This document shows, piece by piece, positions 5,441-28,815 of a stretch of 64,000 nt of DNA; within the stretch, counting starts at the first letter, position 1; each line of letters begins with the position of its first letter. The position numbers were made by a program, and so were the translations under genes. The DNA lies in assembly GCA_903879715.1 (NCBI GenBank), contig CAIRMR010000040.1, positions 7,119 to 71,118 of the forward strand, in the 5' to 3' direction. The notes under the pieces were generated by a model. That model saw only the letters and a list, made by a program, of their open reading frames with translations, had not been told where the DNA came from and did not search any database. The DNA is from an uncultured Bacteroidales bacterium. Its GTDB lineage: Bacteria; Bacteroidota; Bacteroidia; Bacteroidales; UBA4417.

Positions 5441-6781
5441 TCAGTGATCATCTAATAAACTGCTGTACCAATATCCCGAATCTTTAATTATCCGCTCCTG
5501 GGTTTTGAAGTCTACATAAACAAGTCCGAACCTGGGTTTGAACCCTTCGGCCCATTCAAAATTATCAGTCAGGCTCCAAACAAAATAACCATTTACATTC
5601 ACTCCTTCGCATTTGGCCCGCAGAACCTGTCCCAAATATTGCTTCAGAAAGCTAATCCTTTTTATATCATGTATTTTACCCTCAAGCAGAACATCCGGAA
5701 ATGCTGCTCCATTCTCGGTTACTATAATCTCTTTAAATTTTTTATACTTACTAAACTTCACCAGCATCTTATAGATAGATTCCGGGTAAACTTCCCAGTT
5801 CATAACGGTTGTTTCAACATTTCTCTTTTCTGCCCTGATTACCTTGGCCTTCATCATGGGTGTGAAATTGGAATGGGATATCATTTCACGGGTATAATTC
5901 TGAACACCGATAAAATCCATGTCGAAGGCAAGTTTACTTTCGTCACCATCCTTAATAAATGGCTCCAGCCGTCGGAGTAATTTCAGATCGTTAACCGGAT
6001 AGCCCAGTCCGGCAAGGGGTTCGACAAACAACCGGTTCAACAACGCATCAACTCGGTGAGCAGCCATACCATCGTTTATTGATTTTCCGAAAGGCTCGAC
6101 ATATGAACATGAAAATGTAGTCCCAATATGAGCATCTTTTACCATAGACCTGACTATCCTTCCACCTTCGGACTGGCACATAGCCGAATGATGTGCAGCC
6201 GCCAGGAAGTTGTTCAGTCCTTTACGGCCCGGCGCATGAACACCTAAAAAGTAACCGGCACCGGTATACACCATGGGTTCGTTAAGTATCATCCAGTTTT
6301 TCGCTCTATCACCAAAATACCTGATGCATAACTCCACATAATCACCAAACCAGCCAATAATATCCCTGTTTGTCCAGCCGCCTTTTTTTTCGAGTTCATG
6401 AGGCAGATCCCAATGATATAAAGTAATCCAGGGTTCGATGCCCATTTCGAGGCAAAAATCAATAACACGATTATAAAATTCAATACCTATTGGATTTACC
6501 TTGCCAATCCCATTCGGAATAATACGACTCCACGAGAGAGAAAACCGGAAATTAGGAATCCCGAGTTTAGCTATCAATATAATATCATGGGTATAGCGCC
6601 TGTAAAAATCGCAGGCTATATTCCCGTTTTCACCCTGGAATGTTTTCCCTTTCGTGTTCGAAAAAACGTCCCAGATAGATTTGCCTTTCCCGTCTGAATC
6701 CCATCCCCCTTCGGTTTGATAAGCAGCAGTCGATACTCCCCATTTAAAATCGGGACCAAAATCCTTTCCTGTATAATTCAT
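5441..6781 (-). CDS. Glycoside hydrolase family 1 beta-glucosidase
   Basis: 446 aa. GH1 signatures: FKWGVSTAAYQTEGG, TLYHWDLP, acid/base WMILNEP, nucleophile IVTENGAAF, C-terminal FEWAEGFKPRFGLVYVD. Confidence 0.92.
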   Translation of the reverse strand: MNYTGKDFGPDFKWGVSTAAYQTEGGWDSDGKGKSIWDVFSNTKGKTFQGENGNIACDFYRRYTHDIILIAKLGIPNFRFSLSWSRIIPNGIGKVNPIGIEFYNRVIDFCLEMGIEPWITLYHWDLPHELEKKGGWTNRDIIGWFGDYVELCIRYFGDRAKNWMILNEPMVYTGAGYFLGVHAPGRKGLNNFLAAAHHSAMCQSEGGRIVRSMVKDAHIGTTFSCSYVEPFGKSINDGMAAHRVDALLNRLFVEPLAGLGYPVNDLKLLRRLEPFIKDGDESKLAFDMDFIGVQNYTREMISHSNFTPMMKAKVIRAEKRNVETTVMNWEVYPESIYKMLVKFSKYKKFKEIIVTENGAAFPDVLLEGKIHDIKRISFLKQYLGQVLRAKCEGVNVNGYFVWSLTDNFEWAEGFKPRFGLVYVDFKTQERIIKDSGYWYSSLLDDH

Positions 6782-6790
6782 CTTCTCAGC

Positions 6791-7867
6791 TTAGATTTGC
6801 GCCACTATCTTTTTCAGGATCAGATTTCTGAATTTCTTAACTGTATATTGTTTATCTTTTGTCTTGGCAATCTTTTCGGCATCTTCCTGCACTGTAAGTA
6901 TTGAATTGATTAGTATTTCCGTATTATCCGGATAGTCAACCTCCACCGTTGATCCGTTTTGAATCCAGTTCATTATTTTGCCGACATTTTCAAGTTTGAG
7001 GCTTTTCAATACGGGAACTCCCATTTCTTTTAATGCAGCAGCATTACAATGCTGTTCATATTGTCCTTTCATGGGAATAACCATAAGTTTTTTCTTCATA
7101 AAAAGTGCTTCGGCAGGAGTTTCGAAGCCGGCGCCACATAATATTCCATGTGCTGAAGCCATACTTTCAATAAACGCTTCATTATTAATTGGCTGAATAG
7201 TAATATTACGGTATCCCACCAGCTGTTTATTGTGTTTTGAGAAAACCTGCCACTGCGTGTCTCCACATTGTTTCAAAACCTTTAAAATCCGTTTATCATC
7301 ATAGGCTGGAAGGTAAACCGTATAATGCCCATTATTTTCAATGTTCAGTTCTCTGACTTGTTTGCGTACAACCGGGGTGAAAATATTTTCGGCATATGCT
7401 TTAAAATGAAAACCGTATTTTGCATCCGAAGGCGCGTAATTCTTTAAAATAGCTTTTCCTATAATATCTGAATCTGCAGGCTGCGGAGCTTTTTTATTTA
7501 AAACTGCTGCCTGGTGGCTAACAGAGATGCACTTCACATTTTTAATGTAACAGGCCCATGCCGAAACAGGTTCAAAATCATTGATAACCAGATCATACTC
7601 TTCTACCGGAAGGCTGTTTAACTCAGCAAATAATCGTTTTATATAATTCTTCTTATACGTTTCTACCAGATCAATACCACCATTTGCTCCAAAAATAAAG
7701 CCCAATCCATTAAACCGGTACTTTACAGGGTACGGTAACTCAATATCAGCCTGGGTTCCGCTTATTAATAAATTGACTTCATGATTCTTCTGAAGTATTG
7801 GAATTATATCCCTTGCCCTGCTCAGATGCCCGTTGCCTGTTCCCTGAATTGCATATAAAATTTTCAT
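6791..7867 (-). CDS. Glycosyltransferase (MJ1255/TIGR00661-like, GT28-like fold)
   Basis: 358 aa. N-terminal MKILYAIQGTGNGHLSRARDIIPIL is typical of this uncharacterised GT family. C-terminal half has GAGFETPAEALFMKKKLMVIPMKGQYEQHCNA. Confidence 0.7.
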   Translation of the reverse strand: MKILYAIQGTGNGHLSRARDIIPILQKNHEVNLLISGTQADIELPYPVKYRFNGLGFIFGANGGIDLVETYKKNYIKRLFAELNSLPVEEYDLVINDFEPVSAWACYIKNVKCISVSHQAAVLNKKAPQPADSDIIGKAILKNYAPSDAKYGFHFKAYAENIFTPVVRKQVRELNIENNGHYTVYLPAYDDKRILKVLKQCGDTQWQVFSKHNKQLVGYRNITIQPINNEAFIESMASAHGILCGAGFETPAEALFMKKKLMVIPMKGQYEQHCNAAALKEMGVPVLKSLKLENVGKIMNWIQNGSTVEVDYPDNTEILINSILTVQEDAEKIAKTKDKQYTVKKFRNLILKKIVAQI

Positions 7868-7880
7868 CTGTTGTTTTTTG

Positions 7881-8060
7881 ATTTTTTACGGGTCAGATGG
7901 AATATGCCATGATGAACCCTAATATCTCCTTCGGTTGGTGTTTTCAAATCATGGCTATTTCATGCGTTCTTATTTATTTTTACGGGTTGCATGGAATACG
8001 CAATGATTAAGATTAATAAAGTCATTGGATTCTTTTTTACAATCATGGCTATTTCATTGC
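7881..8060. repeat. Two tandem copies of a module of about 93 bp downstream of the LpxH-like gene
   Basis: TTTTACGGGTCAGATGGAATATGCCATGATGAA...CAAATCATGGCTATTTCAT is matched by TTTTACGGGTTGCATGGAATACGCAATGATTAA...ACAATCATGGCTATTTCAT. Copy 2 ends in the stop codon region (8054). Copy 1 contains the 8-bp inverted pair GCCATGAT/ATCATGGC; in copy 2 the left arm is degenerate (CAATGATT). Confidence 0.7.
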
Positions 8061-8911
8061 CTCATCATATTAAATTCCTGTAACATATTATCAAAAAGCT
8101 GATCATTCGTCAGCTCCGATATTTCTTCTTCTATTTCCTGAATCATTTCAGCTTTATCTGCCTCATTAAACCTGTATATTGACCAATCACCATCCACATA
8201 TTCAAGAGCTGATAAATTTTCGACCCAATCGCCAGAATTCAGATAGGTAATGTGACCTTCAGAATTGCTGATTTCCCTGATTTCGGGGTGATGGATATGG
8301 CCGCAGATAACAAAATCGAATTTATTGCTGATGCCTATATCAGCGGTTGTCTGTTCAAAATCATTAATAAACGAAACGGCGGATTTTACACTTTCCTTGA
8401 TCTTTTTTGATAACGAAAGTTTCCCTTTGTGAAAAACCTTTTCGGAAATGAAGTTGAAAAATCTGTTTATAAGAATCAGAATATCGTAACCAACTGATCC
8501 TAATTTCGCCAGCCACTTTGAATGCTGCATGGTCACATCAAAAACATCACCATGAAAAATCCATGCTTTCTTACCATCAGCTAAAGTTATAACCACCTTA
8601 TTTACAATACTGAGAGAACCCATTTTCAGCCCTTCGAACCTCCGGAGCATTTCGTCGTGATTTCCGGTAACATAATAAGTTTTAATGCCTTTACCCATCC
8701 AGTTGATCAGGTGCTTGATCACTTTCATATGGCTGTTGGGCCAGTATGTTTTACTGAATTGCCATATATCAATGATGTCACCGTTTAAAACAACTACTTT
8801 AGGTTTAACGCTTTTTAAATAGTGAAGGAGTTCTTTAGCGTGGCATCCGAATGTGCCCAGGTGAATATCAGAGATTACAAGTATATCAATCTGCCTTTTT
8901 TGTTTCTTCAT
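8054..8911 (-). CDS. LpxH-family metallophosphoesterase (UDP-2,3-diacylglucosamine diphosphatase-like)
   Basis: 285 aa. Calcineurin-like phosphoesterase motifs appear in order: VISDIHLG, NGDIIDIWQ, TGNHDE, FHGD, CGHIHHP. Confidence 0.75.
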   Translation of the reverse strand: MKKQKRQIDILVISDIHLGTFGCHAKELLHYLKSVKPKVVVLNGDIIDIWQFSKTYWPNSHMKVIKHLINWMGKGIKTYYVTGNHDEMLRRFEGLKMGSLSIVNKVVITLADGKKAWIFHGDVFDVTMQHSKWLAKLGSVGYDILILINRFFNFISEKVFHKGKLSLSKKIKESVKSAVSFINDFEQTTADIGISNKFDFVICGHIHHPEIREISNSEGHITYLNSGDWVENLSALEYVDGDWSIYRFNEADKAEMIQEIEEEISELTNDQLFDNMLQEFNMMRQ

Positions 8912-9326
8912 ATTCAGTGTTTCAGTGTTGGATAGAAATCAGCAAAAAGCGACACAAGAATCGTTGACAACATATTGACAGCCTTTAGATTCAGATTATG
9001 CAATCTGTGAAATACAGGAAAAATCATGTGGAAACCCCTGGTACCAAAAGAAGAAACCTCTTTGGGGATATTGCTTTTTACATTAGGTATCATAATTTTC
9101 GGTTTCCCAAAAGTATTACGCTCATTTAAACAGAATATCAATGGAATATTATCAATATGTTAAACAGGCAAAAAAAGCAGAAAATCGAATTGGTTTATAT
9201 TTATTCTAATAGATTGATAATAAGCAGTATACGATCAACTGATATAGCCAGTCAGGAATTTATAAATAAATCAGATTTGATAAATTCCGAATAAGCATTG
9301 CTTCCGTTTACTGAATTAAGCTCCAA

Positions 9327-9383
9327 CTTAACATTAATTTAATATAGCCGTAACATTGGTGTAACATACTCACATTATTTTTG
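9327..9383 (+). promoter_or_regulatory. Candidate Pho box (four phased heptamers) plus TAnnTTTG box upstream of 9407
   Basis: CTTAACA ttaa TTTAATA tagc CGTAACA ttgg TGTAACA, then 9 nt, then TATTTTTG (9376-9383). Heptamer starts are at 9327, 9338, 9349 and 9360, an exact 11-bp phase. Confidence 0.6.
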
Positions 9384-9406
9384 CATCATAAATAAAACCA
9401 AAGATT

Positions 9407-9760
9407 ATGAAAAGAATATTAAGCATTGTAATAATCGGAATCGTACTGATGATAAGTAACAATGTATTTGCTACCGGCGAAGATGCTGTTGTTCCTGCCA
9501 GTGCAAAAGCAAGTATATCAGGAAAAGTATTAGACATAAAAACAGGCGAATCGCTTGCAGGTGTTGCTATTTCAGTTGAAGGAACAAACATTAAAGTGTA
9601 TACTGATCTTGATGGTTCATTTACTGTTGATGGAATTACTCCAGGCAATTACAACCTTGTTTTATCTTTGATATCATACAAAAGCAGTCTGGTTGAAAAC
9701 ATTAAACTCAATCCAAGCTCAAAGGAAAACATTGACATCAAATTGGACGCTGTAAGATAA
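9407..9760 (+). CDS. Small secreted stand-alone CarboxypepD_reg-like domain protein
   Basis: 117 aa with a signal peptide. SGKVLDIKTGESLAGVAISVEGTNIKVYTDLDGSFTVDGITPGNYNLVLSLISY matches the N-terminal domain of the TonB receptors in this window (compare 11459..14320). Confidence 0.7.
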   Translation: MKRILSIVIIGIVLMISNNVFATGEDAVVPASAKASISGKVLDIKTGESLAGVAISVEGTNIKVYTDLDGSFTVDGITPGNYNLVLSLISYKSSLVENIKLNPSSKENIDIKLDAVR

Positions 9761-9781
9761 TTATAATCCAAAAATATTTCA

Positions 9782-9815
9782 AAGGCTGTGCTTGTTAAAA
9801 GTACAGCCTTTTTTA
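9782..9815 (+). terminator. Rho-independent terminator or attenuator between the CarboxypepD_reg-domain gene and the porin gene
   Basis: AAGGCTGT gcttgttaaaagt ACAGCCTT followed by TTTTATTTTT. Confidence 0.65.
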
Positions 9816-9870
9816 TTTTTACTATGACTATTCTATTAATATTTCAATATTTTTGCGCAAAATAATACAC

Positions 9871-10869
9871 ATGCTACCAAAAGCGCTGATTATCATTCTT
9901 ATTATTACTTCCGCCAGCTTTATCAATGGATTTGCACAAACGACCGACCAAGCAGTTCAAAGCATACACTTACCCAAAATTGATGGTTCGCTGAAAACCA
10001 AATTTGAATATGATCTCGAAAGCCAAAAAATGCGTTTTGAAGTGCGCAATGCGCGTTTTGGTGCGAAAGGAAATCTAAACCAATATTTTGGGTACCGCGT
10101 TGAGGTTGATTTATCGGACGAGGGTAAAATTAAAATGCTCGATGCTTATGTAAAGGTTACACCAATTGAAAAACTGGATATATATCTCGGTCAGCGGAAA
10201 GTACCTTTTGGTTCTGATTATTTAAGAAGTCCGGTTGAAGGCCTTTTTGCCAACCGCTCATTCGTAGCAAAATATGTAAATGATGGCTTACGAGATATAG
10301 GATTAGTAGTTAACTATCAGTTTAAGTTCCATATCCCCTTTGATGTTTGGGTAGCTGCAATGAACGGGACCGGGAACAACAACCCGCAATGGATTGACAA
10401 ACCGAATTATGCAGCAAGATTAATCATTGAGCCTCTGAAAAATTTCAGATGTGTTGGAAACTATTACCAGGGATCAACCATACTCGAAAAGGATATGACC
10501 ATGTATGGAGGAGAAATGCGTTACCAAACAAATAAACTTCTAATTGAAACAGAATTTCTTAAAAGGCATTACACCGATACAAGCTCTTTAGCTCATGACC
10601 AGTTTGGATTTTATGTTCACTCGTATTACAATTTCTTCACCGGGGCTGAAATGATTCAGATGATAAGTCCGACTCTCAGGTGGGATTTTATGGGTAAAAC
10701 AGAACATACCAGCGAATTAACCGCAAACCGAATAACCACAGGTGTTAATTTCGGTTTCGAGCCAAAACAGTTTAAAGCTGAGATAAGGCTCAATTATGAA
10801 AAATATTTAAAAAAATCTCTTCCGGCGCATTTCGACAAGTTTACTATCGAATTTATTGCAAAATTCTGA
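9871..10869 (+). CDS. Phosphate-selective porin O/P-like outer membrane porin
   Basis: The ORF track starts at TTG 9853. ATG 9871 gives the signal peptide MLPKALIIILIITSASFINGFAQ. Porin_O_P-like pattern: RFEVRNARFGAKGNL...KMLDAYVKVTP...LDIYLGQRKVPFGSDYL. Ends in an aromatic residue (AKF). Confidence 0.7.
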   Translation: MLPKALIIILIITSASFINGFAQTTDQAVQSIHLPKIDGSLKTKFEYDLESQKMRFEVRNARFGAKGNLNQYFGYRVEVDLSDEGKIKMLDAYVKVTPIEKLDIYLGQRKVPFGSDYLRSPVEGLFANRSFVAKYVNDGLRDIGLVVNYQFKFHIPFDVWVAAMNGTGNNNPQWIDKPNYAARLIIEPLKNFRCVGNYYQGSTILEKDMTMYGGEMRYQTNKLLIETEFLKRHYTDTSSLAHDQFGFYVHSYYNFFTGAEMIQMISPTLRWDFMGKTEHTSELTANRITTGVNFGFEPKQFKAEIRLNYEKYLKKSLPAHFDKFTIEFIAKF

Positions 10870-10929: not shown

Positions 10930-11394
10930 TTAATTGGAACTATAGTTTCGTTCACTGCTTAACTTTCCATCCTCATCCCACACACGCCAGGTACCTGTTT
11001 TTTCACCATTGCTGTAATACATTTCATAGCGAAGCGTTCCTTTTTCGTCCCAGATACGCCAGATTCCGTCCTTTTTATCATGGCGGTAATTAGCTTCAGC
11101 AATTTTTGCGCCTGAATTAAAATAAGTGTACCAGATACCATGTTTCTGACCATCGAGGTACGATCGCTGCTCTTCTAATTTCCCGTTTTCAAAGTATATT
11201 TCAGTGATGCCGTTTTCGCGGCCATTCGTTATATTTTCAATAAGTTTTATAGTCTTGTCAGGCCAGTACTCTGTATATGTGCCGGTGTATAACATGCCAT
11301 TTTTGTAATAATAGCCGTTACTGTATTCAAGTGCCTGGCTGTAAACGCTTGTCATAATCAACAGGAGAACAGATAATAATACGATTTTTTTCAT
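10930..11394 (-). CDS. MORN-repeat-variant (YwqK-like) secreted protein
   Basis: 154 aa with a signal peptide. Repeated G.Y..YW/Y.NGK...E..Y..G..HG.W units. Confidence 0.65.
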   Translation of the reverse strand: MKKIVLLSVLLLIMTSVYSQALEYSNGYYYKNGMLYTGTYTEYWPDKTIKLIENITNGRENGITEIYFENGKLEEQRSYLDGQKHGIWYTYFNSGAKIAEANYRHDKKDGIWRIWDEKGTLRYEMYYSNGEKTGTWRVWDEDGKLSSERNYSSN

Positions 11395-11458: not shown

Positions 11459-14320
11459 TTACTTCTTATTAAAATTGAGAACAACACCCAATGAAATTAA
11501 GCTTCCGGGATTATATTCCAGCGTTGATTGTTCCCGGTTAACTGTAGCTCCATCCAGATTCTTGTATTTAACAAATTGTTTTTCGACGACTTTCTGGTTC
11601 AGTATATCCTGGATACCAGCTTTAATCTGTAAATAATCTCCGATACTTTTGGTTATCGTCAGATCAAAAACATTTCGAGGCATTTCGTACACATCAGGTG
11701 TATCAAAACCAACAACAACAATTCTTTTACCAATCACATTGTAAAGCAGGCTTATCATCAATCCATTATCGTTATCCTGGTAATAAAGGCCGAGGTTTAC
11801 AATAAAGGGCGACTGTCCTTGCATAGGACGTTTGGATTCGGCTGCATAAAACTTGGTAGTGTCGAGACTGATTTCGCTCTTAATAACTGATGCATTTGCT
11901 ACAAGCATAAAGTTTTTGAAATATTTCAGGAAATTATCCTTCTTACCCAGGCTCTCGAGTGATTTTCGTATTTCGAGCTCAACTCCATAGTTTTTAGCTC
12001 CATAGGCATTCTGAAAAGTAAAATCCTTACCACTACCGGAACTAATTTCGATTGTTTCGATTGGTTTTTTAAAGTCCTTGTAAAACACTCCAAAAACAAA
12101 AGTTTCGCTCGGCGAAGGATAGAATTCGTACCTGAAATCGTAGTTATTGATGGTTGCATTTTCAAGATCAGGATTACCTCTGACCAGTTTCTTCAATTCA
12201 AAATCATAAAAAGCAAAAGGAGCTATCTCCCGAAACTCAGGGCGGTTTATAGTTAAGCCGTATGACAAACGCAACAATGATTTTTCATTAAAATTGTAGC
12301 TAAGGTTTGCCGATGGGAAAAAACGTGTTTCATCAATACCTTTTTTCACTTCCTCATTGGAGTTGTCACTCGAGTAACTGTTCATTTGCTGCTTGTTTTT
12401 CTCCATACGTACGCCGGCATATAAATTCAGTTTAGGTGTAAACGGCAATTTAGCAGCTAAATAAGCAGCCATCAAATCATTGGTAGCTGTATAGGAATCA
12501 CTCTTATTCGTAGTTTCGTCAAGTTTAATGCCGGTGGTGGTGTTGATATTGGTATCAGCAAAAATTACATCAACAGGCTCATAAGGAAGTCCCCAGTTGA
12601 ATTTAGATGTGTTTGAAATAGCATATCCTATCAGTCTTGCATCAAAAGCGCGGTCCTTTTTCTCAAGGTACATACCAGCCTTCAGTTCAGGTTTAAAGTT
12701 GCCGAAAGTGAACGTATTATCATAATTAAAGTTAGCGTTGTATACATGCTCCGTTAGGTGCTGGTAAACACGTCCCGACAACTCAGGAGAAGCAGAAAAT
12801 GAAAAATTAACTCCATACTGATCATAATATTGATTATCCGGATCTTCTACAAGGGAGCTTGTCAAACGTTTCAAATCAGGCTGATCCCTGTCGGCATACG
12901 AATATCCTAAAGTCCAGTTAAAATGTGATTGATTGTTCCTGAAATTGAAATCACCAGCCAGTTGCCCGGAATACATGTTCCTGCTGCTGAAACTAAGTTC
13001 TTCAGAGCGAATGGTAAGTCCGCCATAGTTATCGCGGCCATTCCGGTCAATAACCTGGGTGTATCCCTGGTGGTTATATAAGTTACGGAATTCAATTTTC
13101 TGGTTGTTGCCAAAAACAAATAACCAGTTGCTTAATGCCCCGATTTTAGCGGTAGCCTTGCTGCGTATATCATTGAAATAATAATTGGTATCCGATCTGT
13201 CCTTAACTGTGTCATACTGCTGATAATCGGCACGGAATACTTCATCCATATCCTGGGTATAACTGTATGTTAAACTGTTTATAGTTCCAACCGAAACTTT
13301 TCCAACCAAAAAACGTCGGGTAAGTCCAAACTGGAAACGCTGATCCGGAATTGCGGTGCTTACAGCCGGTGTCCATACTTTATCCAATTCTCTTCCCAGG
13401 CGTTGTCGTTCATTTTTATCTGTAACTTCGTTAAGGTGTTCAGGAAAGTCAGCTGGCAAAGCTCTTTTACCATCGTCAAATCCTAACCATTCATATTTAC
13501 TCATCCGGTAATTGTTGAAATCCTTAAAAGTAACTCCAGGCCTGTAAGAAGTTGAATATGCAACAGAGAAACTGTTTTTGTCCGCGTTATTTTTTGTAAA
13601 TATTTTAATGGCTGCTCCTGAGAAATCAGCTGGTAGTTCTGGTGCAGGACTTTTAAAAACCATAATATTCTCCAGCATCGAACTGGGAATTACATCAAAT
13701 GAAAATGCTCTCACATCAGCTTCCGAACTTGGAGTTGATGCATTATTGAGCCAAACTGTATTATAACGCTGGCTGAGTCCCCGCACCATTACAAACCTAT
13801 CATCCATTATAGTGATACCCGGCACGCGCCTGATAACCTCGGAAGCATCGCGGTCCTGTGATCGGTTTATCTGCTGACTCGAAATGCCACTAACTACAAG
13901 GCTACTCATCTTCATTGACGAAAGCATTGATATTTCACTGCCGCCAGTCTTGCTTTTTGCTGAAATCACCACCCCTTCAAGCGCAACACTGTTGCCTTCA
14001 AGATCAATATTCAGATCAAGCATTATATCCTTAACAACCTGAACCTTTTCAATGATTTGTGTTTTATAGGAAATATAAGAAATAACCAGGTTGTAACTCC
14101 CGGGAGCTAATCCTTTAATCAAATAATTTCCATCGAGATCAGTTGTTGATCCGGTGGTAGTACCTTGTATTAAAACCGTAGCGCCTACTAGTGTTTCCTT
14201 GGATATTTTATCGGCTACAACACCTTTTATACCTGTTTGTTGGGCAAAGCCAAGCGTGCTATAAAAAACCAGCAGTATTGTAATGTATCTGTTACTCATC
14301 AATTTCAAGATTATTTTCAT
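11459..14320 (-). CDS. TonB-dependent receptor with CarboxypepD_reg N-terminal domain (about 950 aa)
   Basis: The ORF track starts at TTG 14335; ATG 14320 (MKIILKLMSNRYITILLVFYSTLGFAQQ) is more plausible. GIKGVVADKISKETLVGATVLIQGTTTGSTTDLDGNYLIKGLAPGSYNLVISYISY, then plug VIRRVPGITIMDDRFVMVRGLSQRYNTVWLNN, then a long barrel. Confidence 0.85.
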   Translation of the reverse strand: MKIILKLMSNRYITILLVFYSTLGFAQQTGIKGVVADKISKETLVGATVLIQGTTTGSTTDLDGNYLIKGLAPGSYNLVISYISYKTQIIEKVQVVKDIMLDLNIDLEGNSVALEGVVISAKSKTGGSEISMLSSMKMSSLVVSGISSQQINRSQDRDASEVIRRVPGITIMDDRFVMVRGLSQRYNTVWLNNASTPSSEADVRAFSFDVIPSSMLENIMVFKSPAPELPADFSGAAIKIFTKNNADKNSFSVAYSTSYRPGVTFKDFNNYRMSKYEWLGFDDGKRALPADFPEHLNEVTDKNERQRLGRELDKVWTPAVSTAIPDQRFQFGLTRRFLVGKVSVGTINSLTYSYTQDMDEVFRADYQQYDTVKDRSDTNYYFNDIRSKATAKIGALSNWLFVFGNNQKIEFRNLYNHQGYTQVIDRNGRDNYGGLTIRSEELSFSSRNMYSGQLAGDFNFRNNQSHFNWTLGYSYADRDQPDLKRLTSSLVEDPDNQYYDQYGVNFSFSASPELSGRVYQHLTEHVYNANFNYDNTFTFGNFKPELKAGMYLEKKDRAFDARLIGYAISNTSKFNWGLPYEPVDVIFADTNINTTTGIKLDETTNKSDSYTATNDLMAAYLAAKLPFTPKLNLYAGVRMEKNKQQMNSYSSDNSNEEVKKGIDETRFFPSANLSYNFNEKSLLRLSYGLTINRPEFREIAPFAFYDFELKKLVRGNPDLENATINNYDFRYEFYPSPSETFVFGVFYKDFKKPIETIEISSGSGKDFTFQNAYGAKNYGVELEIRKSLESLGKKDNFLKYFKNFMLVANASVIKSEISLDTTKFYAAESKRPMQGQSPFIVNLGLYYQDNDNGLMISLLYNVIGKRIVVVGFDTPDVYEMPRNVFDLTITKSIGDYLQIKAGIQDILNQKVVEKQFVKYKNLDGATVNREQSTLEYNPGSLISLGVVLNFNKK

Positions 14321-14332
14321 ATTAACTGAGTG

Positions 14333-14378
14333 CAAAATTCCGATCTTAATATTAACTAAATGTTAATTTATTGTTATG
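14333..14378 (-). promoter_or_regulatory. Candidate Pho box (three phased heptamers) plus -7-like box upstream of the TonB receptor 11459..14320
   Basis: Minus strand reads CATAACA ataa ATTAACA ttta GTTAATA, then 9 nt, then GAATTTTG. ATG 14320 lies 12 nt after the box. Confidence 0.55.
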
Positions 14379-14473
14379 ATTAAGAAATTCGCTCTTAACA
14401 TTATAATAATCTGATAACCAAACTAAAAGCAAGTATTCATAAAATCAGGCTATTAATAATTTGTTCCAATATC

Positions 14474-14519
14474 CTTAATGTTTAGTTAACATGCCTGAAG
14501 GGAAGAGAGATTAATTTTG
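14474..14519 (+). promoter_or_regulatory. Candidate Pho box (two good heptamers) plus TAnnTTTG box upstream of the T9SS protein gene
   Basis: CTTAATG ttta GTTAACA tgcc (TGAAGGG, degenerate), then 9 nt, then TAATTTTG (14512-14519). Phasing is the same as at the other sites. Confidence 0.5.
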
Positions 14520-14542
14520 CGATAATTCTAAATTTAAAAAAA

Positions 14543-16135
14543 ATGAAAAAACTAATACTCATTAATTTTATGCTGATTTGCCTGGCAATGGCCGGCTTTA
14601 GCCAAAAAACAATCAGCGATTCCTTCTTTGACCATGTAAATTACAGAGGAGCTTTCGGAACAAATGATGATTGGACAGCCGGTTGGGCAAACTGGGATTG
14701 CAAGAATACCGCATATGGAACACCAGATGTTACCGTAGAAGGCGAACTTCTCTCAAGTACTACCTGGACCGCTAACCATGTATACCTTATTAAAGGGTTT
14801 TATTATGTTCGCACCGGAGTTACTTTAACTATAGAGCCTGGCACTGTTATCCGCGGAGATAAGGATACCAAAGGTACTTTATTGATCGAACGTGGAGCAA
14901 AACTGATGGCAGAAGGCACTCTGAGCCAACCCATAGTGTTTACTTCAAACTCCATTTCAGGTGAACGTTCTTATGGCGACTGGGGTGGTGTTGTTCTTTG
15001 TGGCAAAGCATCTATTAATGTTCCGGGCGGAACTTCAATCATCGAAGGAGGCCCTACTTCGGTTTACGGTGGCGGAGCAACGCCTGATGATGCTGACAAC
15101 AGCGGAAGTTTGAAATATGTACGTATTGAATTCCCGGGTATACCTTTTGTTCAGGACAAAGAAATTAACGGACTTACCTTAGGTGCGGTTGGTAGCAGTA
15201 CCCGGCTTGAATACATTCAGGTATCATATAGTGGTGACGATTCGTATGAATGGTTTGGCGGAACAGTAAATGCCAAGCACTTGATTGAATACCGGGGATG
15301 GGATGATGATTTTGATACCGATTTCGGATACAGGGGTATGATACAATTTGCAGTTTCTTTAAGAGATAAGGATATTGCTGATCCGGGTTCAGGATCAAAT
15401 GGTTTTGAATCTGATAATGATGGTTCAGGCTCCACTAATACTCCTGTAACACAACCTATATTTAGCAACGTTTCTGTTTTTGGTCCTAAGTATGATATGG
15501 CTACTGCAACAAACTCCAATTTCAAACGTGCCATGCACCTTCGCCGCAACACCAGGCTGAACGTTTATAACTCAATATTCTCGGGTTTCCCAACCGGTTT
15601 GTTTATTGATGGTACTGCTGCACAGGGTAACGCAACCGCCGGTGATATGAAACTGCAATATTGTGTTATGTCGGGTATGGGTTCATTTTTTGTAAGTTCT
15701 TTCGAACGTAACTTCTTCAAAACACCTGCTTTTGGTAATGATACATTAGCTACCAATGATTTGCTGATGGTTACTGATCCATTCAACCTAAGCCAGCCTA
15801 ACTTCCTGTTGAAAGCTGAATCAGAATTGAACTCGAGTTCGATATGGGATAATACAGCTTTGAAACACGATCAGAAGAAGGCATTTGCAGCCTCTGTTTA
15901 CCCGAATCCCGTTTCGCAAAATGCTACAATAAATCTTAACCTGGAAAAATCGCAAAACGTTGCAATAGCATTATACGATATACTCGGTAATAAAGTAGAT
16001 GCAATCGCCCAGAAAGAGTATTACGCAGGTAACAATGAAATAAAATATGATGCTTCGTCATTGCCTAAAGGAATGTATTTCATTCGGATCAGTGACGGAG
16101 TAAAAAACAGTTCGGTGAAAATGTTAGTTAAATAG
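14543..16135 (+). CDS. Secreted protein with T9SS C-terminal sorting domain; function unknown
   Basis: 530 aa. Signal peptide MKKLILINFMLICLAMAGFSQ. The C-terminal roughly 80 aa (SVYPNPVSQNATINLNL...GMYFIRISDGVKNSSVKMLVK) is a type-A T9SS CTD. Conserved-looking body motifs: TLTIEPGTVIRG, GDDSYEWFGG, GWDDDFDTDFGYRG, GFESDNDG. No phosphatase motif recognised. Confidence 0.75.
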   Translation: MKKLILINFMLICLAMAGFSQKTISDSFFDHVNYRGAFGTNDDWTAGWANWDCKNTAYGTPDVTVEGELLSSTTWTANHVYLIKGFYYVRTGVTLTIEPGTVIRGDKDTKGTLLIERGAKLMAEGTLSQPIVFTSNSISGERSYGDWGGVVLCGKASINVPGGTSIIEGGPTSVYGGGATPDDADNSGSLKYVRIEFPGIPFVQDKEINGLTLGAVGSSTRLEYIQVSYSGDDSYEWFGGTVNAKHLIEYRGWDDDFDTDFGYRGMIQFAVSLRDKDIADPGSGSNGFESDNDGSGSTNTPVTQPIFSNVSVFGPKYDMATATNSNFKRAMHLRRNTRLNVYNSIFSGFPTGLFIDGTAAQGNATAGDMKLQYCVMSGMGSFFVSSFERNFFKTPAFGNDTLATNDLLMVTDPFNLSQPNFLLKAESELNSSSIWDNTALKHDQKKAFAASVYPNPVSQNATINLNLEKSQNVAIALYDILGNKVDAIAQKEYYAGNNEIKYDASSLPKGMYFIRISDGVKNSSVKMLVK

Positions 16136-16160
16136 AGCTTTCGTTTTTCAACTTATATAT

Positions 16161-16196
16161 AAAAGCCGGCTCCTAATTGAGCCGGCTTTTACTTTT
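16161..16196 (+). terminator. Rho-independent terminator after the T9SS protein gene
   Basis: AAAAGCCGGCTC ctaatt GAGCCGGCTTTT followed by acTTTT. Confidence 0.8.
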
Positions 16197-16390: not shown

Positions 16391-16436
16391 AGAAACATCT
16401 AGTTAACAATTTGTTAACATACAAGAATTAATTTTG
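16391..16436 (+). promoter_or_regulatory. Candidate Pho box plus TAnnTTTG box upstream of DUF47-pit
   Basis: AGAAACA tcta GTTAACA attt GTTAACA, then 9 nt, then TAATTTTG (16429-16436). This is a perfect 7-4-7 direct repeat. Confidence 0.6.
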
Positions 16437-18711: not shown

Positions 18712-18781
18712 CTTAACAATTATTTAACATTGGAGTAATTGGTAAGTAATACTTGAGCAGTTACTTTACATAAATTTAACA
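18712..18781 (+). promoter_or_regulatory. Candidate Pho box region upstream of pstS
   Basis: CTTAACA atta TTTAACA ttgg AGTAATT ggta AGTAATA (starts 18712, 18723, 18734, 18745). A second, out-of-phase pair is CTTTACA taaa TTTAACA (18764, 18775). At the expected offset only a weak -7 box (TACTTTAC) is present. Confidence 0.45.
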
Positions 18782-19850: not shown

Positions 19851-21062
19851 ATGACCAAAGCCAGAAGAATATACGAGAAGATTGTTACCGGCATACTGTT
19901 TTCAAGCAGTACTATCACCAGTCTTACGGTTATACTTATTATTGTTTTCCTTTTCAGGGAAGGGATAGGGCTTTTCAACAGCACACCAACCGAGAAAAAT
20001 TATGTTATTGCCGTTAGCCGCCAGAACACTATACCAATCATCACATCCAATGAGTTAGCCGATATTTTTAACCAGGATATAACAAACTGGAAACAACTTG
20101 GAGGTAGAAATGATAGCATTGTGCGTTTAACATTGAACGATCTGTCAGGAATTTTTACAGAAGAAGAACTTGGCCCTGATCTCGAATTTTTCCCTCAAAA
20201 ATTAAATGAATTTGTAAAAACCACGCCCGGTGTAATTCTATATCTTTCAAAAGAATATCTTCCGAAAAATTTTGCAGGCAGGATTATTCCTGTTAAAAAA
20301 ATTACACTACTGGATTTTATTTTCGGAAAGCATTGGTACCCAACTTCGTCACCAATACCACAGTTTGGGATCTGGCCAATGATAGTAGGCACTTTAATGG
20401 TAACCTTAGGTGCCATACTGTTCGCGCTTCCTTTTGGGATGGCAACTGCCATTTTTATGTCGGAAATTGCTGGTAACCGTTTGCGTAATATAATGAAACC
20501 TGTTGTTGAACTGCTGGCAGGGATTCCATCAGTGGTATATGGATTCTTTGGACTTGTAGTACTGGTACCTCTTATACAAAGTCTCTTCGGACTTGATGTT
20601 GGTGAAACTGTGCTCGCCGGAAGCATTGTATTGGGCATAATGGCTTTACCCACCATAGTTACTGTAGCCGAAGATGCTCTTCATGCTACACCGCAGTCTC
20701 TCAGGGAAGCAAGCCTTGCCTTGGGCGCTTCTGAATTGCAGACTCTGGTCAGGGTAGTTATACCTTACTCAAAATCAGGAATTTCCACAGCAGTAATTCT
20801 CGGTACAGGCCGTGCAATAGGCGAAACAATGGCAGTTTTAATGGTAACCGGCAACTCTACACATGTTAATTACTCATTTCTACAACCTACCCGCACCATT
20901 CCAGCCACTATAGCGGCCGAACTTGGTGATACATCGTTTGGAGGAGTACATTATAATGCATTGTTTGCACTGGCAATCGTTCTTTTCCTCTTCACTATTA
21001 TAATTAACCTTTCTGTGGAGGTAATCAAAAACAGGAATCAAAGAGTTAACCAACGAGGTTAA
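19851..21062 (+). CDS. pstC: Phosphate ABC transporter permease PstC with an enlarged first periplasmic loop
   Basis: 403 aa. The permease core carries the EAA-type loop (ALPTIVTVAEDALHATPQSLREASLALGAS). About 110 extra residues between TM1 and TM2 contain a PstS-like ITNWKQLGG segment. Confidence 0.88.
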   Translation: MTKARRIYEKIVTGILFSSSTITSLTVILIIVFLFREGIGLFNSTPTEKNYVIAVSRQNTIPIITSNELADIFNQDITNWKQLGGRNDSIVRLTLNDLSGIFTEEELGPDLEFFPQKLNEFVKTTPGVILYLSKEYLPKNFAGRIIPVKKITLLDFIFGKHWYPTSSPIPQFGIWPMIVGTLMVTLGAILFALPFGMATAIFMSEIAGNRLRNIMKPVVELLAGIPSVVYGFFGLVVLVPLIQSLFGLDVGETVLAGSIVLGIMALPTIVTVAEDALHATPQSLREASLALGASELQTLVRVVIPYSKSGISTAVILGTGRAIGETMAVLMVTGNSTHVNYSFLQPTRTIPATIAAELGDTSFGGVHYNALFALAIVLFLFTIIINLSVEVIKNRNQRVNQRG

Positions 21063-25823: not shown

Positions 25824-25995
25824 CCACAGGCACCGGATTTGCCGATAAAGTGTAACACTTTGTGCGCAAATAAAGCCATTATACCGATTTTAACATATTA
25901 TTAATTTTTTTCATAATACCCTTGCAAATATTTTACCGTTACTTTGATATTAATTTTCAACAAGTGTTAAGAAATATATATCAAGTAATAACTTT

Positions 25996-28815
25996 ATGAA
26001 ATTCAAGCTTTTTTTGCCCTCGTTACTTCTTGCCTTAATGAGTTATTTTGTCCAGGCTCAAAATCCAACCCGAGTATCCATTAAAGGAACTTTGCAGGAC
26101 ACCTTGCATGAAGCAATCCCATTTGCTACTGTTATGCTGCTCAACAATGCCGATTCGTCATTGGTCAATTTCCTGTCGAGCAACGACAAGGGTGAATTTG
26201 CATTTAACAATGTGAAAAACAGCACTTACCTGCTTAAAGTGCAGCATATGAGTTTTTTGCCGGTACAAAAACTATTACAACCTTCTGCAACCATACTCAA
26301 TAACCTGTCAGTTGTTACCATGAAACCTATTTCCACCATGCTGATGGAGGTAGTGATACGGGCAGCAAAAGCACCTTTACGTATCAAGGGCGATACTGTT
26401 GAATACGATGCTTCAACCTTTAAAGTTCCGCCCGGATCAACTGTAGAGGATCTGCTTCGTCGTTTACCTGGAATTGATGTGGATGCCGATGGAAATATAA
26501 GCACACAAGGAAAAGACGTAACCAGAATGTATGTAGATGGGAAGACTTTTTTTGGCGATGACCCGAAAAGTGTAACCAAGAACCTTGGAGCTGAAGCTAT
26601 TTCGAAAGTGCAGGTTTACAATGAAAAATCCGAACAATCAAAACTTACCGGCGTGGATGATGGCTCACAGGAAAAAACTATGAACCTCGAACTGAAAGAA
26701 GAATTTAAAAAAGGAGCTTTTGGAAAGGCTAGCCTGGCCGGTGGAACGGAAGACAGATGGGCCGCCAGGGCTAACTACAACCGTTTTAACGATAAATCGC
26801 AGCTTTCTTTTATCGGATATGGAAACAATATTAACCAAACCGGGGTCAACTGGGAAGATTATGGCGAATTTAAAGGCAATAATGCTTTCAATAATTTTGA
26901 TAACGGCGATTTCGGATTTAACCGCAACGGCGGACATATGTTCTATTTCAGCAGCGATGATTCACCGGTGAGCAATTACGACGGAAAAGGCCTTACCGAA
27001 AATTATGGCGCAGGAACCAACTTCAATTTCGACAATAAAAAAACCAAATTTAACGCCAGTTATTTCTACAACCAAACTCAACTGGATTTTGACCAGAAAA
27101 GTTACCAGAAAACATACCTGGACGGTGAAAATGCTTTTGAACAATATGATTCACTGGTAAACGATGATTTCCGTTCGAGCCACAGCATTGCTACACGCTT
27201 TGAGCAGGAATTTGATTCCAGCAATAAACTTATAGTGAAAGCCAATTTCCGTTACTCTTTAAACAATAACAATAAAATCAACAACCAGCAATTCAGCGAT
27301 TATACACTTGAGCCATACAATTCGCTTAAACTTGATAACACAACGGATTTAGCTGCTTCAAAAATTACCTCTGCAGCCATTTACAGGCATCTTTTCAAAA
27401 AGAAAGGACGCTCTTTTGCTATCAGTGGCGGATACAACAGTAATACTAACGATGGTACGGAGAATTATAACTCCATAAATAAGTTTTTCGAAGCAACAAC
27501 TCCAACTGAGCAGATTCAGCAAATGATAAATACTGGTAAAAATGTTAATGAGTTAAAATCAAGTGTTCTGTATACAGAGCCTTTATCGAAAAAAATATTT
27601 TTAGAATTCTTTTACAACTTTAGCCAGTTAACCAATAAGAGTAACCGACAGGCTTATCCTTTCGGAAATGAATTACGTATCGATAGCCTTAGCTCTTATT
27701 ACGATCAGGTAACAATGTATAACCGCTTAGGTTCTGTGCTCAGGTACTCATACAATGGGCTAAATGCTTCTGTCGGTTTTGCCATGCAGCAATTGAAACT
27801 TACCGGCTTATACTCGCTCGACGAAGGTCTGCCATGGTACAATGAGAATGTGACTAAAGACTATCCAAACTTCACACCTAATTTAAACGTAAATTATGAA
27901 TTCAAAAATAATATGCGCCTGGATTTAGCATATTCAAATGATATTTCTGCGCCTGATTTTAATGATCTTCAACCCGTTAAGAACCTGAGCAATCCATCCT
28001 ACCAGGTAATTGGCAATCCCGATCTGATTCCCGAAAATGCGCATAATGTTGAATTTGGTGTGCATTACTGGAACCCATCATCCTTTTCGAGTATTGGAGT
28101 GAATGTAAATTATGGAATAACGAAAAACCCTATCGTCTATAGTCAGAGTTCTCACTTCGATCCTAAAACAGGTATGATCACTACATCCACCCCTGAAAAT
28201 ATGGAACAGGGTACCAATATGGGTTCCTGGTTATGGTCGAGTATGCCAATCATCAAGACCAAGCTCACTATTGATATAAATGGCGGAGCAAATATGTCGA
28301 ACAGGCCGACACGTATCAATGATACACTAAACGACATTAAATCACAGAATTATAACTTAGGAAGCAACCTTAATTATACAGCAAGCAGCAAACTGATACT
28401 CTCTGTTGGTGGAAGCGGTGGTTTCAGTAAAATCAGGTACAATAAAAGTGAAATGAATAACCAGGATTACTTCAATTATGTAATCCGATCATCAATAAAA
28501 TGGCAATTTATTGACCGTATGTTCTTTGAGAGTAATTTCAACTACTCAGTGTTTAAAAATGAAAGCTTTAATTTTGATCAGTCAATTCCTTTATGGAATG
28601 CTTCGGTACGCAGGATTATGGGTAAGAAAAACAAGTTTGAAACACGTCTGGCAGTCTTCGATATTTTCAACCAAAATGTAAATATTAATCAATATGCCTT
28701 CAATAACATTGTAGGAACAAGTAAAACAAATACACTTGCACGTTATTTTATGCTGAGTATAACATACAATATGAAAGGTTTTGAGAATAAAATCCAGAAA
28801 AACAGGTTCATGTAA
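25996..28815 (+). CDS. Outer membrane beta-barrel family protein (TonB-receptor-like, OMP_b-brl_3 type)
   Basis: 939 aa with a signal peptide. CarboxypepD_reg-like VSIKGTLQDTLHEAIPFATVMLL. Plug-like GDTVEYDASTFKVPPGSTVEDLLRRLPGIDVDADGNISTQGKDVTRMYVDGKTFFG. Asn/Ser/Tyr-rich barrel ending in ...RFM. Confidence 0.8.
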   Translation: MKFKLFLPSLLLALMSYFVQAQNPTRVSIKGTLQDTLHEAIPFATVMLLNNADSSLVNFLSSNDKGEFAFNNVKNSTYLLKVQHMSFLPVQKLLQPSATILNNLSVVTMKPISTMLMEVVIRAAKAPLRIKGDTVEYDASTFKVPPGSTVEDLLRRLPGIDVDADGNISTQGKDVTRMYVDGKTFFGDDPKSVTKNLGAEAISKVQVYNEKSEQSKLTGVDDGSQEKTMNLELKEEFKKGAFGKASLAGGTEDRWAARANYNRFNDKSQLSFIGYGNNINQTGVNWEDYGEFKGNNAFNNFDNGDFGFNRNGGHMFYFSSDDSPVSNYDGKGLTENYGAGTNFNFDNKKTKFNASYFYNQTQLDFDQKSYQKTYLDGENAFEQYDSLVNDDFRSSHSIATRFEQEFDSSNKLIVKANFRYSLNNNNKINNQQFSDYTLEPYNSLKLDNTTDLAASKITSAAIYRHLFKKKGRSFAISGGYNSNTNDGTENYNSINKFFEATTPTEQIQQMINTGKNVNELKSSVLYTEPLSKKIFLEFFYNFSQLTNKSNRQAYPFGNELRIDSLSSYYDQVTMYNRLGSVLRYSYNGLNASVGFAMQQLKLTGLYSLDEGLPWYNENVTKDYPNFTPNLNVNYEFKNNMRLDLAYSNDISAPDFNDLQPVKNLSNPSYQVIGNPDLIPENAHNVEFGVHYWNPSSFSSIGVNVNYGITKNPIVYSQSSHFDPKTGMITTSTPENMEQGTNMGSWLWSSMPIIKTKLTIDINGGANMSNRPTRINDTLNDIKSQNYNLGSNLNYTASSKLILSVGGSGGFSKIRYNKSEMNNQDYFNYVIRSSIKWQFIDRMFFESNFNYSVFKNESFNFDQSIPLWNASVRRIMGKKNKFETRLAVFDIFNQNVNINQYAFNNIVGTSKTNTLARYFMLSITYNMKGFENKIQKNRFM

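Follow-up and report, generated by a model that had tools for sequence, protein, structure and literature searches.

Receptor-partner pairs have already been reported that we infer to match the subject of this study, two divergent genes encoding a TonB-dependent receptor and a 530-aa protein with signals of the type IX secretion system (T9SS) in a 64,000-nucleotide stretch of DNA (hereafter the window) from an uncultured Bacteroidales bacterium (contig CAIRMR010000040.1, positions 7,119 to 71,118). In Caulobacter crescentus, the ~50-kDa surface lipoprotein ElpS (CC0170) is made under phosphate starvation only; its gene neighbours a type II secretion cluster and the gene of the receptor CC0171, and a protease that depends on type II secretion later sets the protein free (Le Blastier et al. 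2010, PMC2996285). Refolded and immunoprecipitated ElpS showed no phosphatase activity on p-nitrophenyl phosphate (pNPP), and overproduction of ElpS raised the phosphatase activity of the supernatant (PMC2996285). In Flavobacterium johnsoniae, the receptor Fjoh_0545 and FII (Fjoh_0546), a hypothetical lipoprotein of predicted pectin-lyase fold encoded downstream of it, share a phoBR cluster with a glycosyltransferase and OprP (Lidbury et al. 2020, PMC8115612). FII belongs with FI (Fjoh_3856/3857) and FIII (Fjoh_4889) to the F-type proteins, which were modelled on polygalacturonase and are major exoproteins of this organism, FI being the most abundant. Fjoh_0545/0546 and the other F-type proteins were strongly induced by phosphate depletion only, not by iron or nitrogen limitation, and PusC/PusD pairs were induced by phosphate depletion as well (PMC8115612). 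The F-type proteins are homologous to ElpS. In Bacteroides thetaiotaomicron, BT4056 was proposed as a non-SusD 'lid' of BT4055, the proximity of the two being conserved in 621 genera, and AlphaFold-Multimer positioned BT4056 at the outer face of the receptor; it shares 40% identity with Fjoh_0546 and is a distant relative of ElpS (Price et al. 2023, bioRxiv 10.1101/2023.03.17.533168). No later functional paper on BT4056 or Fjoh_0546 was found in the literature searched.

For the window pair, the gene identities, the predicted fold class of the partner, the adjacency of receptor and partner, their linkage to pho genes, and the enriched and conserved repeat arrays in front of them are established by sequence and comparison. 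Taken together, we consider it fairly probable (about 0.6) that the two genes form one outer-membrane phosphorus-scavenging unit under the control of the PhoR-PhoB system encoded 9 kb downstream.

The receptor and its beta-helix partner

Open reading frame (ORF) and domain analysis placed the receptor gene on the minus strand and the 530-aa T9SS cargo gene on the plus strand, diverging from a common AT-rich spacer, and thereby bore out the divergent pair proposed in an initial annotation of the sequence. The features of the pair are as follows.

11459 to 14320, minus strand: TonB-dependent receptor gene, with signal peptide, CarboxypepD_reg, Plug and 22-strand-type barrel (PF13715, PF07715, PF00593)
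14543 to 16135, plus strand: beta-helix partner gene, 530 aa, with signal peptide, beta-helix core and T9SS C-terminal domain
15233 to 15424, plus strand: acidic motif block on successive helix turns, with GDDSYEWFGG (residues 231-240), GWDDDFDTDFGYRG (252-265) and GFESDNDG (287-294)
16160 to 16191, plus strand: intrinsic terminator of the partner gene, with a 13-pair stem, 7 G-C pairs and a T-rich tail

At its maximal extent (11459-14335), the receptor ORF encodes 958 aa from a TTG codon. Since orthologues are annotated at 944-946 aa, an ATG at 14320 (MKIILKL...) or at 14299 is the likely start, and the spacer therefore spans 207-243 bp rather than exactly 207 bp as first given. A Plug domain (PF07715, 41 bits), a C-terminal beta-barrel (PF00593, 98 bits) and a signal peptide together identified the product as a TonB-dependent transporter. 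The top NCBIfam match was TIGR01782 TonB-Xanth-Caul (187 bits, under the cutoff of 310), and TIGR04056 SusC matched the N-terminal domain only (51.6 bits, cutoff 368). A SusCD-type pair was rejected, as the receptor is not of the SusC/RagA type and there is no SusD-like gene nearby. The partner transcript, judging from the terminator at 16160-16191 that ends it, is monocistronic.

The partner begins with a signal peptide (~residues 1-20, followed by Gln) and ends in a T9SS type-A C-terminal domain (residues 449-529, with profile matches over 452-528; PF18962, 56.7 bits, cutoff 27; TIGR04183, 46.3 bits, cutoff 23). This domain aligned with C-terminal domains of F. johnsoniae T9SS substrates in the PDB in a profile search, and a Por_Secre_tail domain above cutoff combined with a Sec signal peptide marks the protein as a type-A T9SS cargo. 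Its N-terminus, MKKLILINFMLICLAMAGFSQKT, has no canonical lipobox. Because the lipobox is absent and the type-A domain present, the window pair is classed as a variant of the known pairing.

The core of the partner (~residues 60-430, ~400 residues) had no match in NCBIfam or in the Pfam copy used, which did not hold PF28492 (Beta_helix_4). Membership in PF28492 was taken from the precomputed annotation of homologues; every homologue listed carries it, including P0002 (96% identity over 100% of the length) and lipoproteins of Bacteroides and Parabacteroides, and one family member also matches PF13229 Beta_helix (E 1.3e-5). PF28492 was named in no paper found. The AlphaFold2 model (mean predicted local distance difference test score, pLDDT, 88.6) showed a right-handed beta-helix-like core with short strands through residues 60-430 and a C-terminal beta-sandwich. 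With Foldseek against the PDB, the best matches were generic beta-helices (tailspikes, pectate lyase, pectin methylesterase) at template modeling (TM) scores <0.3 and 8-11% identity, and function transfer by structure was dropped on that account. The profile and structure predictions proposed initially for this protein thus yielded a family, a fold class and no specific structural relative. No phosphatase, phytase or nuclease family (PhoA, PhoD, PhoX, PafA, beta-propeller phytase, EndA and others) was found for the partner in Pfam (E up to 5), NCBIfam or PDB sequence searches, in agreement with the initial annotation, and a known phosphatase was rejected for want of any such family match. The same searches, including profile searches of the PDB, gave no known enzyme for the beta-helix core; the T9SS domain alone was matched. 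An established function of the family unrelated to phosphorus was also looked for, and none was found.

The three acidic motifs, already picked out as conserved-looking from the sequence, proved to be the best-conserved stretches of the family and form its core. Residues invariant from Bacteroidota to Alpha- and Gammaproteobacteria are W147-G149, D185, E207/N209, D232, D233, E236, F238, G239, G240, D254, D255, D258, E289, D291 and R334, and the motif block is a candidate metal- or ligand-binding or catalytic groove. Ca2+-dependent pectate lyases carry acidic residues along one face, as the window protein does.

Homologue searches with the window protein, a Parabacteroides lipoprotein and a B. 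finegoldii read-through sequence, together with a cluster look-up, returned no B. thetaiotaomicron, F. johnsoniae or C. crescentus entries, so that we infer the family identity with BT4056, Fjoh_0546 and ElpS from four links. A Bacteroides finegoldii lipoprotein encoded directly after a non-SusC receptor carries PF28492 and matches the window protein at 34% identity (E 1e-36); it would be the orthologue of BT4056. An alphaproteobacterial relative from Indioceanicola (34% identity, E 3e-47) lies in a neighbourhood of beta-helix, receptor and type II secretion genes, as described for elpS. Flavobacteriia loci have the order PhoR-PhoB-receptor-partner, with the receptor Pfam signature of Fjoh_0545 (PF14905 + PF13715 + PF07715). 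Finally, the window protein and the reference proteins have the fold class in common.

Compared with ElpS/CC0171, the window pair likewise combines a receptor with an adjacent partner that has no recognisable enzyme domain, ElpS itself being surface-exposed or extracellular and specific to phosphate starvation. Unlike the lipoprotein ElpS, the window protein has a T9SS domain in place of a lipobox, and the two loci differ in the order and orientation of their genes. The gene set of the Fjoh_0545/0546 locus (receptor and partner with phoBR, an OprP porin and a glycosyltransferase) recurs in the window, whereas the F-type proteins are lipoproteins encoded in a same-strand operon and the window partner is T9SS-sorted by its domains, divergent, and furnished with its own putative promoter and Pho box. 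BT4055/BT4056 also consist of a non-SusC receptor and a surface protein of the pectin-lyase superfamily, kept in proximity across Bacteroidota and Proteobacteria; BT4056-type proteins are ~400-aa lipoproteins with an acidic surface-export signal, whereas the window protein is longer, has an N-terminal FFxxVxYRGAFG...DWTxGW stretch and carries the T9SS domain. SusC/SusD and PusC/PusD resemble the pair in joining a TonB-dependent transporter to a surface-exposed binding partner, but have a SusC/RagA-type receptor and an all-helical SusD where the window has a beta-helix. Pectate lyases, glycoside hydrolase family 28 (GH28) polygalacturonases and tailspikes share the predicted right-handed beta-helix and gave the best Foldseek matches, yet these families went undetected by sequence and no carbohydrate-active enzyme context was seen. 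What distinguishes the window pair is the T9SS sorting domain replacing the lipid anchor, divergent transcription, and two separate Pho boxes. The initial annotation had envisaged an uncharacterised system; the partner family is indeed biochemically uncharacterised, whereas the module is not new, having been described before (PMC2996285, PMC8115612, 10.1101/2023.03.17.533168).

The pho cluster and the phased repeats

Domain annotation of the window placed the pair in the middle of a complete pho cluster comprising an OprP-like porin, PhoU_div-PiT, pstSCAB-phoU and phoBR. Upstream of the pair lie genes for a glycosyltransferase, a calcineurin-like phosphoesterase, a small CarboxypepD_reg protein and the OprP-type porin; downstream are PhoU_div, PiT, pstS, pstC, pstA, pstB, phoU, a PhoB-like regulator, a PhoR-like kinase and a second receptor-like barrel. 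This order, including the divergent pair, is identical in relatives whose partner proteins are 96% and 74% identical. The sequence comes from a lake-water Bacteroidales population and is matched by DNA metagenome runs of lake water.

Phased TTAACA-type repeats occur on both sides of the spacer and in front of other genes of the cluster; -7 elements were judged by the Bacteroidota consensus TAnnTTTG.

14350 to 14377, minus strand: receptor Pho-box-like array, ATAACA (14377-14372)-N5-TTAACA (14366-14361)-N5-TTAATA (14355-14350), 11-bp phasing
14333 to 14340, minus strand: receptor -7 box-like element GAATTTTG, TAnnTTTG with one mismatch, 9 nt past the last repeat
14475 to 14491, plus strand: partner Pho-box-like site, TTAATG (14475-14480)-N5-TTAACA (14486-14491), two units, 20 nt before the -7 box
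14512 to 14519, plus strand: partner -7 box TAATTTTG, perfect TAnnTTTG, 23 nt before the ATG
9328 to 9383: promoter of the small CarboxypepD_reg and porin genes, four units (9328-9366), 9 nt, -7 element TATTTTTG
16403 to 16436: PhoU_div-PiT promoter, perfect TTAACA-N5-TTAACA, 9 nt, -7 element TAATTTTG

The receptor, 9350-9383 and 16403-16436 promoters share the 9-nt gap between box and -7 element. On the partner side, the distance of 20 nt (9 + 11) keeps the site in phase and leaves out the promoter-proximal unit. The phased arrays that the initial annotation had described in both orientations are thus present; their correct placement relative to a -7 box holds on the receptor side and, on the partner side, by half, in phase but with the proximal unit absent. 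A perfect box was also found before pstS (18713-18729).

Sites matching TTAACA-N5-TTAACA with up to 2 mismatches numbered 32 in the window, compared with 16.3 +/- 3.9 in shuffled sequences, and no shuffle reached 32. All but one of the sites with at most 1 mismatch fall in pho intergenic regions, before the small CarboxypepD_reg gene, the receptor, PhoU_div and pstS. Composites of a box, 9 or 20 nt, and a TAnnTTTG -7 box were found 11 times, with about 1 expected. A sigma-70-type promoter scan was uninformative (16 found, 16.8 expected), as expected for Bacteroidota promoters.

When four orthologous spacers were aligned, the conserved islands included the boxes and -7 elements. The receptor -7 element is invariant as TGCAAAATTC (plus strand) and the partner -7 box as TAATTTTGC; on the partner side, TCCTTAAT[GA]-N5-TTAACA and the 20-nt distance are kept while the intervening 20 nt vary. 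The two proximal receptor-side units are kept in relatives at 74-96% protein identity, in which the middle of the spacer has diverged, and the boxes before PhoU_div and pstS are kept in relatives too.

The Escherichia coli Pho box is CTGTCAT-N4-CTGTCAT, Bacillus subtilis PhoP recognises TT(A/T/C)ACA repeats, and PhoB boxes are 11-bp phased. The window repeats are like these sites in being direct repeats of 11-bp periodicity that overlap or replace the upstream promoter element, and TTAACA corresponds to the Bacillus-type consensus. Unlike them, they are coupled at a fixed 9 nt (or 20 nt) to the Bacteroidota -7 element TAnnTTTG. The window shows the architecture of Pho regulon promoters: at least two direct repeats, phased at 11 bp, lie over the upstream promoter element, and core pho genes of this genome have them too. 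The literature searched yielded no published Bacteroidota Pho box, and the window offers a candidate for one, with fixed geometry to the -7 element and backed by cross-genome comparison.

Two further sites were seen apart from these promoters. At 2021-2073, a palindromic Pho-box-like site consists of TTAATATTCAGTTAACA (minus strand) overlapped by TTAACTGAATATTAAGA (plus strand), and each strand has a -7-like element 9 nt away. Nothing but a 15-codon ORF, starting at 2075, begins near this site; genes of 60 aa or more do not. Before the Pseudoalteromonas beta-helix/receptor operon (L085, 5470-5512), TTGTCAT occurs twice, with TGTAAC-N4-TTGTCAT, resembling the enterobacterial Pho box as judged from the letters alone.

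Recurrence of the pair and its proposed role

Across a comparative set of 80 genome loci, ~60 have, directly next to the beta-helix gene, a related receptor of full length that is 31-47% identical to that of the window. The receptor is nearly always upstream on the same strand, and the divergent arrangement was seen only in the clade of the window. No other gene family approaches the receptor in neighbour frequency, and the next commonest neighbours are all phosphate-related: PhoB/PhoR, PstS, PstB, PiT, PhoU, a PlcP-like phosphoesterase and the MORN protein. Receptor adjacency extends to B. finegoldii, Indioceanicola and Pseudoalteromonas. Strict pho genes were found at 10 kb or less from the pair in 28 of the 80 loci, 14 of which have a PhoB of at least 50% identity, and in 21 of the 46 loci that span 15 kb or more; the arrangements include PhoR-PhoB-receptor-partner and receptor-partner-pstS(CAB-phoU). 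In at least 5 loci (L014, L028, L031, L032, L036) the pair is directly upstream of pstS (and pstCAB-phoU) on the same strand, and in a Melioribacter metagenome-assembled genome (MAG) pstS begins 87 bp after the beta-helix gene; this position suggests that the imported compound ends as orthophosphate for PstS.

Among 54 distant loci, sense-strand boxes were found upstream of the receptor in 31 (~4 expected), 16 of them with at most 1 mismatch (0.8 expected). Many are phased arrays of 3-4 units, and they occur in Ignavibacteria, Pedobacter, Adhaeribacter, Chitinophaga and several classes of Bacteroidota. The conserved pho linkage and the conserved motif for which the initial annotation had called were therefore both found, the former in the complete cluster of the window and its close relatives as well as at distance, and its phosphate-scavenging reading, with Pho regulation as a prediction, gains support.

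An exhaustive search returned 8,274 family representatives (50% identity clusters) at E <=1e-3 and 2,575 at E <=1e-30, many of them multi-module. The forms seen include lipoproteins of ~400-480 aa in which acidic residues follow the Cys (Parabacteroides, Pedobacter, Adhaeribacter, B. finegoldii), proteins with Sec and T9SS signals like the window protein, proteins with Ig, PKD or Big_2 domains, and tandem-duplicated proteins in Proteobacteria. Cultured species with a T9SS-type pair include Hymenobacter koreensis and H. sediminis (L037 and L041). Judged by these sequences, the surface-anchoring modules are exchangeable within the family, some members having a lipobox plus an acidic export signal and others a T9SS C-terminal domain, which argues that extracellular display is a conserved requirement.

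Some individual loci deserve mention. A T9SS-type homologue at L003 (9974-11527; 53% identity, from a MAG that bears the label Bacteroides sp.) is an exception to the pairing, with no related receptor at 10 kb or less. The B. finegoldii copy at L086 (5821-7074) has an in-frame stop at 6424-6426, and no gene is listed there by PLSDB; it is either a pseudogene or a sequencing error, and intact 417-aa versions exist (P0370). In Proteobacteria the beta-helix gene precedes the receptor instead of following it, and tandem duplications of the beta-helix module there give proteins of 933-956 aa (L084, 6761-9631; L085, 5639-8440). Among metagenomic representatives, lengths go up to 2,400 aa and matched stretches up to 8 per protein. 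The stretch FFxxVxYRGAFG...DWTxGWxNxD is N-terminal in the window protein (14621-14710, residues 27-56) and in Pedobacter, is C-terminal in many lipoprotein forms (L051, L057, L063, L064), and follows each module in the proteobacterial tandem forms; its placement looks like a circular permutation of a capping element.

If the pair is a phosphorus-scavenging unit, low phosphate would lead phosphorylated PhoB (PhoB~P) to bind the 11-bp-phased TTAACA-type repeats over the -33 region of both divergent promoters and to switch on the receptor gene, probably with the gene of the MORN protein, and, separately, the beta-helix gene. The beta-helix protein would be exported by Sec and then, as its domains suggest, cross the outer membrane through the T9SS by means of its C-terminal sorting domain, to be displayed on the surface or released; a lipid anchor would serve instead in other lineages. 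There it may act as a substrate-capturing, 'lid'-like accessory of the receptor, its invariant acidic groove (DD..E / DD..D / E.D / R) holding a phosphate-bearing ligand, probably via divalent cations. The ligand would be handed to the receptor for TonB-energised import, and the phosphate would reach PstS-PstCAB and PiT; condensed, polymeric or mineral-associated phosphate are the candidate substrates. In this scheme PhoB binding, induction, surface display, docking on the receptor and metal-mediated binding are predictions drawn from sequence.

Several points weigh against this proposal. In about 40% of the distant loci the receptor is not preceded by a box, and over half of the loci lack a pho gene at 10 kb or less, so Pho control may not be universal in the family. 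Within the window itself, the partner-side box has two units only, with the proximal one absent and 2 mismatches, and pstS has no clear -7 box at the canonical distance from its boxes. Among the sequencing runs holding the window sequence there were lake-water DNA metagenomes only, and no RNA runs. The link to ElpS, Fjoh_0546 and BT4056 rests on a Pfam family shared with the Bacteroides relatives, on fold, on synteny and on Pfam signatures. For these reference proteins, CC0171 was reported to be constitutive and deletion of elpS to have no phosphatase phenotype (PMC2996285), and BT4055-BT4056 had few high-confidence predicted contacts (10.1101/2023.03.17.533168). ElpS and the F-type proteins are moreover largely released into the medium (PMC2996285, PMC8115612), behaviour more in keeping with a soluble enzyme or binding protein than with a fixed lid.

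The main rival is accordingly that the partner is a secreted enzyme, whether hydrolase, lyase or phosphoesterase, whose substrate would be an anionic phosphorus polymer, such as a teichoic-acid-like glycopolymer, a phosphorylated exopolysaccharide, polyphosphate or nucleic acid, and that the receptor imports the released phosphorus compounds; Pho control and pairing would be the same as for a binding lid. Invariant Asp, Glu and Arg residues on consecutive helix turns speak for it, and the catalytic grooves of pectate lyases and GH28 polygalacturonases show a similar layout of residues. A multi-module build with PKD, Ig or Big_2 domains, as in secreted enzymes that degrade polymers, is frequent in the family, and the accumulation of ElpS and F-type proteins in the medium, the polygalacturonase-based models of the latter (PMC8115612) and the raised supernatant phosphatase activity upon ElpS overproduction (PMC2996285) point the same way. 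However, ElpS was itself inactive on pNPP (PMC2996285), no sequence or profile match to known enzyme families was obtained, the Foldseek matches were generic, and strict one-to-one adjacency to a receptor is more typical of the binding partners SusD, BtuG and HmuY. The present data do not separate a binding lid from an enzyme, and we regard the enzyme as a serious candidate that is nonetheless on the unlikely side.

That the pair serves the uptake of some nutrient without phosphorus, for instance a metal or a glycan, with the pho neighbours incidental in this lineage and the repeats conferring no PhoB control, seems to us quite improbable. The acidic clusters could bind metal cations as cargo, the Pseudoalteromonas copy lies beside a TonB-ExbBD cluster and siderophore genes, and both the many distant loci without a nearby pho gene and the reported constitutive expression of CC0171 (PMC2996285) would agree with it. 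Yet the pho enrichment seen in the 80 loci, including the 14 with a closely similar PhoB, is far above expectation for the few pho loci of a genome, Pho-box arrays precede the receptor in several Bacteroidota classes and in Ignavibacteria, and the F. johnsoniae proteins responded to phosphate depletion only, not to iron or nitrogen (PMC8115612). Least probable of all is that the TTAACA-type repeats arose by chance in AT-rich intergenic DNA or reflect generic promoter architecture, an idea that we rejected as contradicted by statistics and conservation. The spacer is AT-rich, 2-mismatch sites arise 16 times by chance in the window, and the partner-side site is one with 2 mismatches; but no shuffle reached the observed count, composites exceeded expectation about as 11 to 1, the sites are conserved islands in otherwise diverged spacers, and phased arrays recur before orthologous receptors in distant genomes and before PhoU_div and pstS in relatives.

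A further reading is that the PF28492 beta-helix captures or processes phosphorus compounds, its invariant groove binding condensed, polymeric or mineral-associated phosphate through Ca2+ or Mg2+; with its dedicated receptor it would provide an energised outer-membrane entry that feeds PstS/PstCAB, and its anchor (lipid or T9SS) would be freely exchangeable. We offer this tentatively, as possible rather than probable; candidate ligands would be polyphosphate, pyrophosphate, phytate, phosphodiester glycopolymers and colloidal Fe/Ca-phosphate. If true, it would amount to a new metal-dependent phosphorus module and a widespread route, with ~8,000 cluster representatives across Bacteroidota, Ignavibacteria and Proteobacteria. 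Phosphate is a growth-limiting nutrient in lakes, the source habitat of this sequence, and in oceans and soils. The receptor/beta-helix pair is present in thousands of lineages, and in the few organisms that have been studied its proteins rank among the foremost low-phosphate proteins in both induction and abundance. To this the window adds a fully syntenic example in a complete pho cluster, a candidate Pho box, invariant residues to mutate, and an exchange of lipoprotein and T9SS anchors. It is not a new class of system; the defined promoter architecture, residue set and anchor exchange make its substrate and mechanism testable.

Neighbouring genes

Around the pair, the following genes were annotated in addition to the core pho genes.

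5441 to 6781, minus strand: GH1 glycosidase, upstream extension of the pho cluster
6791 to 7867, minus strand: Glyco_trans_1_3 glycosyltransferase, upstream extension of the pho cluster
8054 to 8911, minus strand: calcineurin-like phosphoesterase, upstream extension of the pho cluster
9407 to 9760: secreted stand-alone CarboxypepD_reg protein, 117 aa, behind the strongest Pho box of the window
9853 to 10869: OprP-like porin, after the small CarboxypepD_reg gene
10930 to 11394, minus strand: MORN_2-repeat protein (PF07661), 154 aa, with signal peptide; follows the receptor gene on its strand after 64 bp

The MORN_2 gene is possibly co-transcribed with the receptor. A small secreted MORN_2 protein recurs beside the pair in 7 loci (L016, L044, L051, L057 and L070 among them) and could be a third component of it. 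An Rfam scan found no RNA element near the pair, only a distant tRNA.

The gene order of the upstream part (5441-10869) is kept in L081 and L083. We take its glycosyltransferase (6791-7867) and phosphoesterase (8054-8911) to resemble the phosphate-sparing lipid-remodelling set of PlcP and a glycosyltransferase. At the other end of the cluster, right after phoR, a second receptor-like gene of the OMP_b-brl_3 type (25996-28815) is followed by a gene for a Porph_ging-family protein (28876-29643). Weak Pho-box-like sites lie at 25888-25970, and the two genes may be another Pho-controlled outer-membrane pair. The PstC-like permease encoded at 19851-21062 is long (403 aa) and has a weak N-terminal match to PBP_like_2 (E 7e-4, under cutoff).

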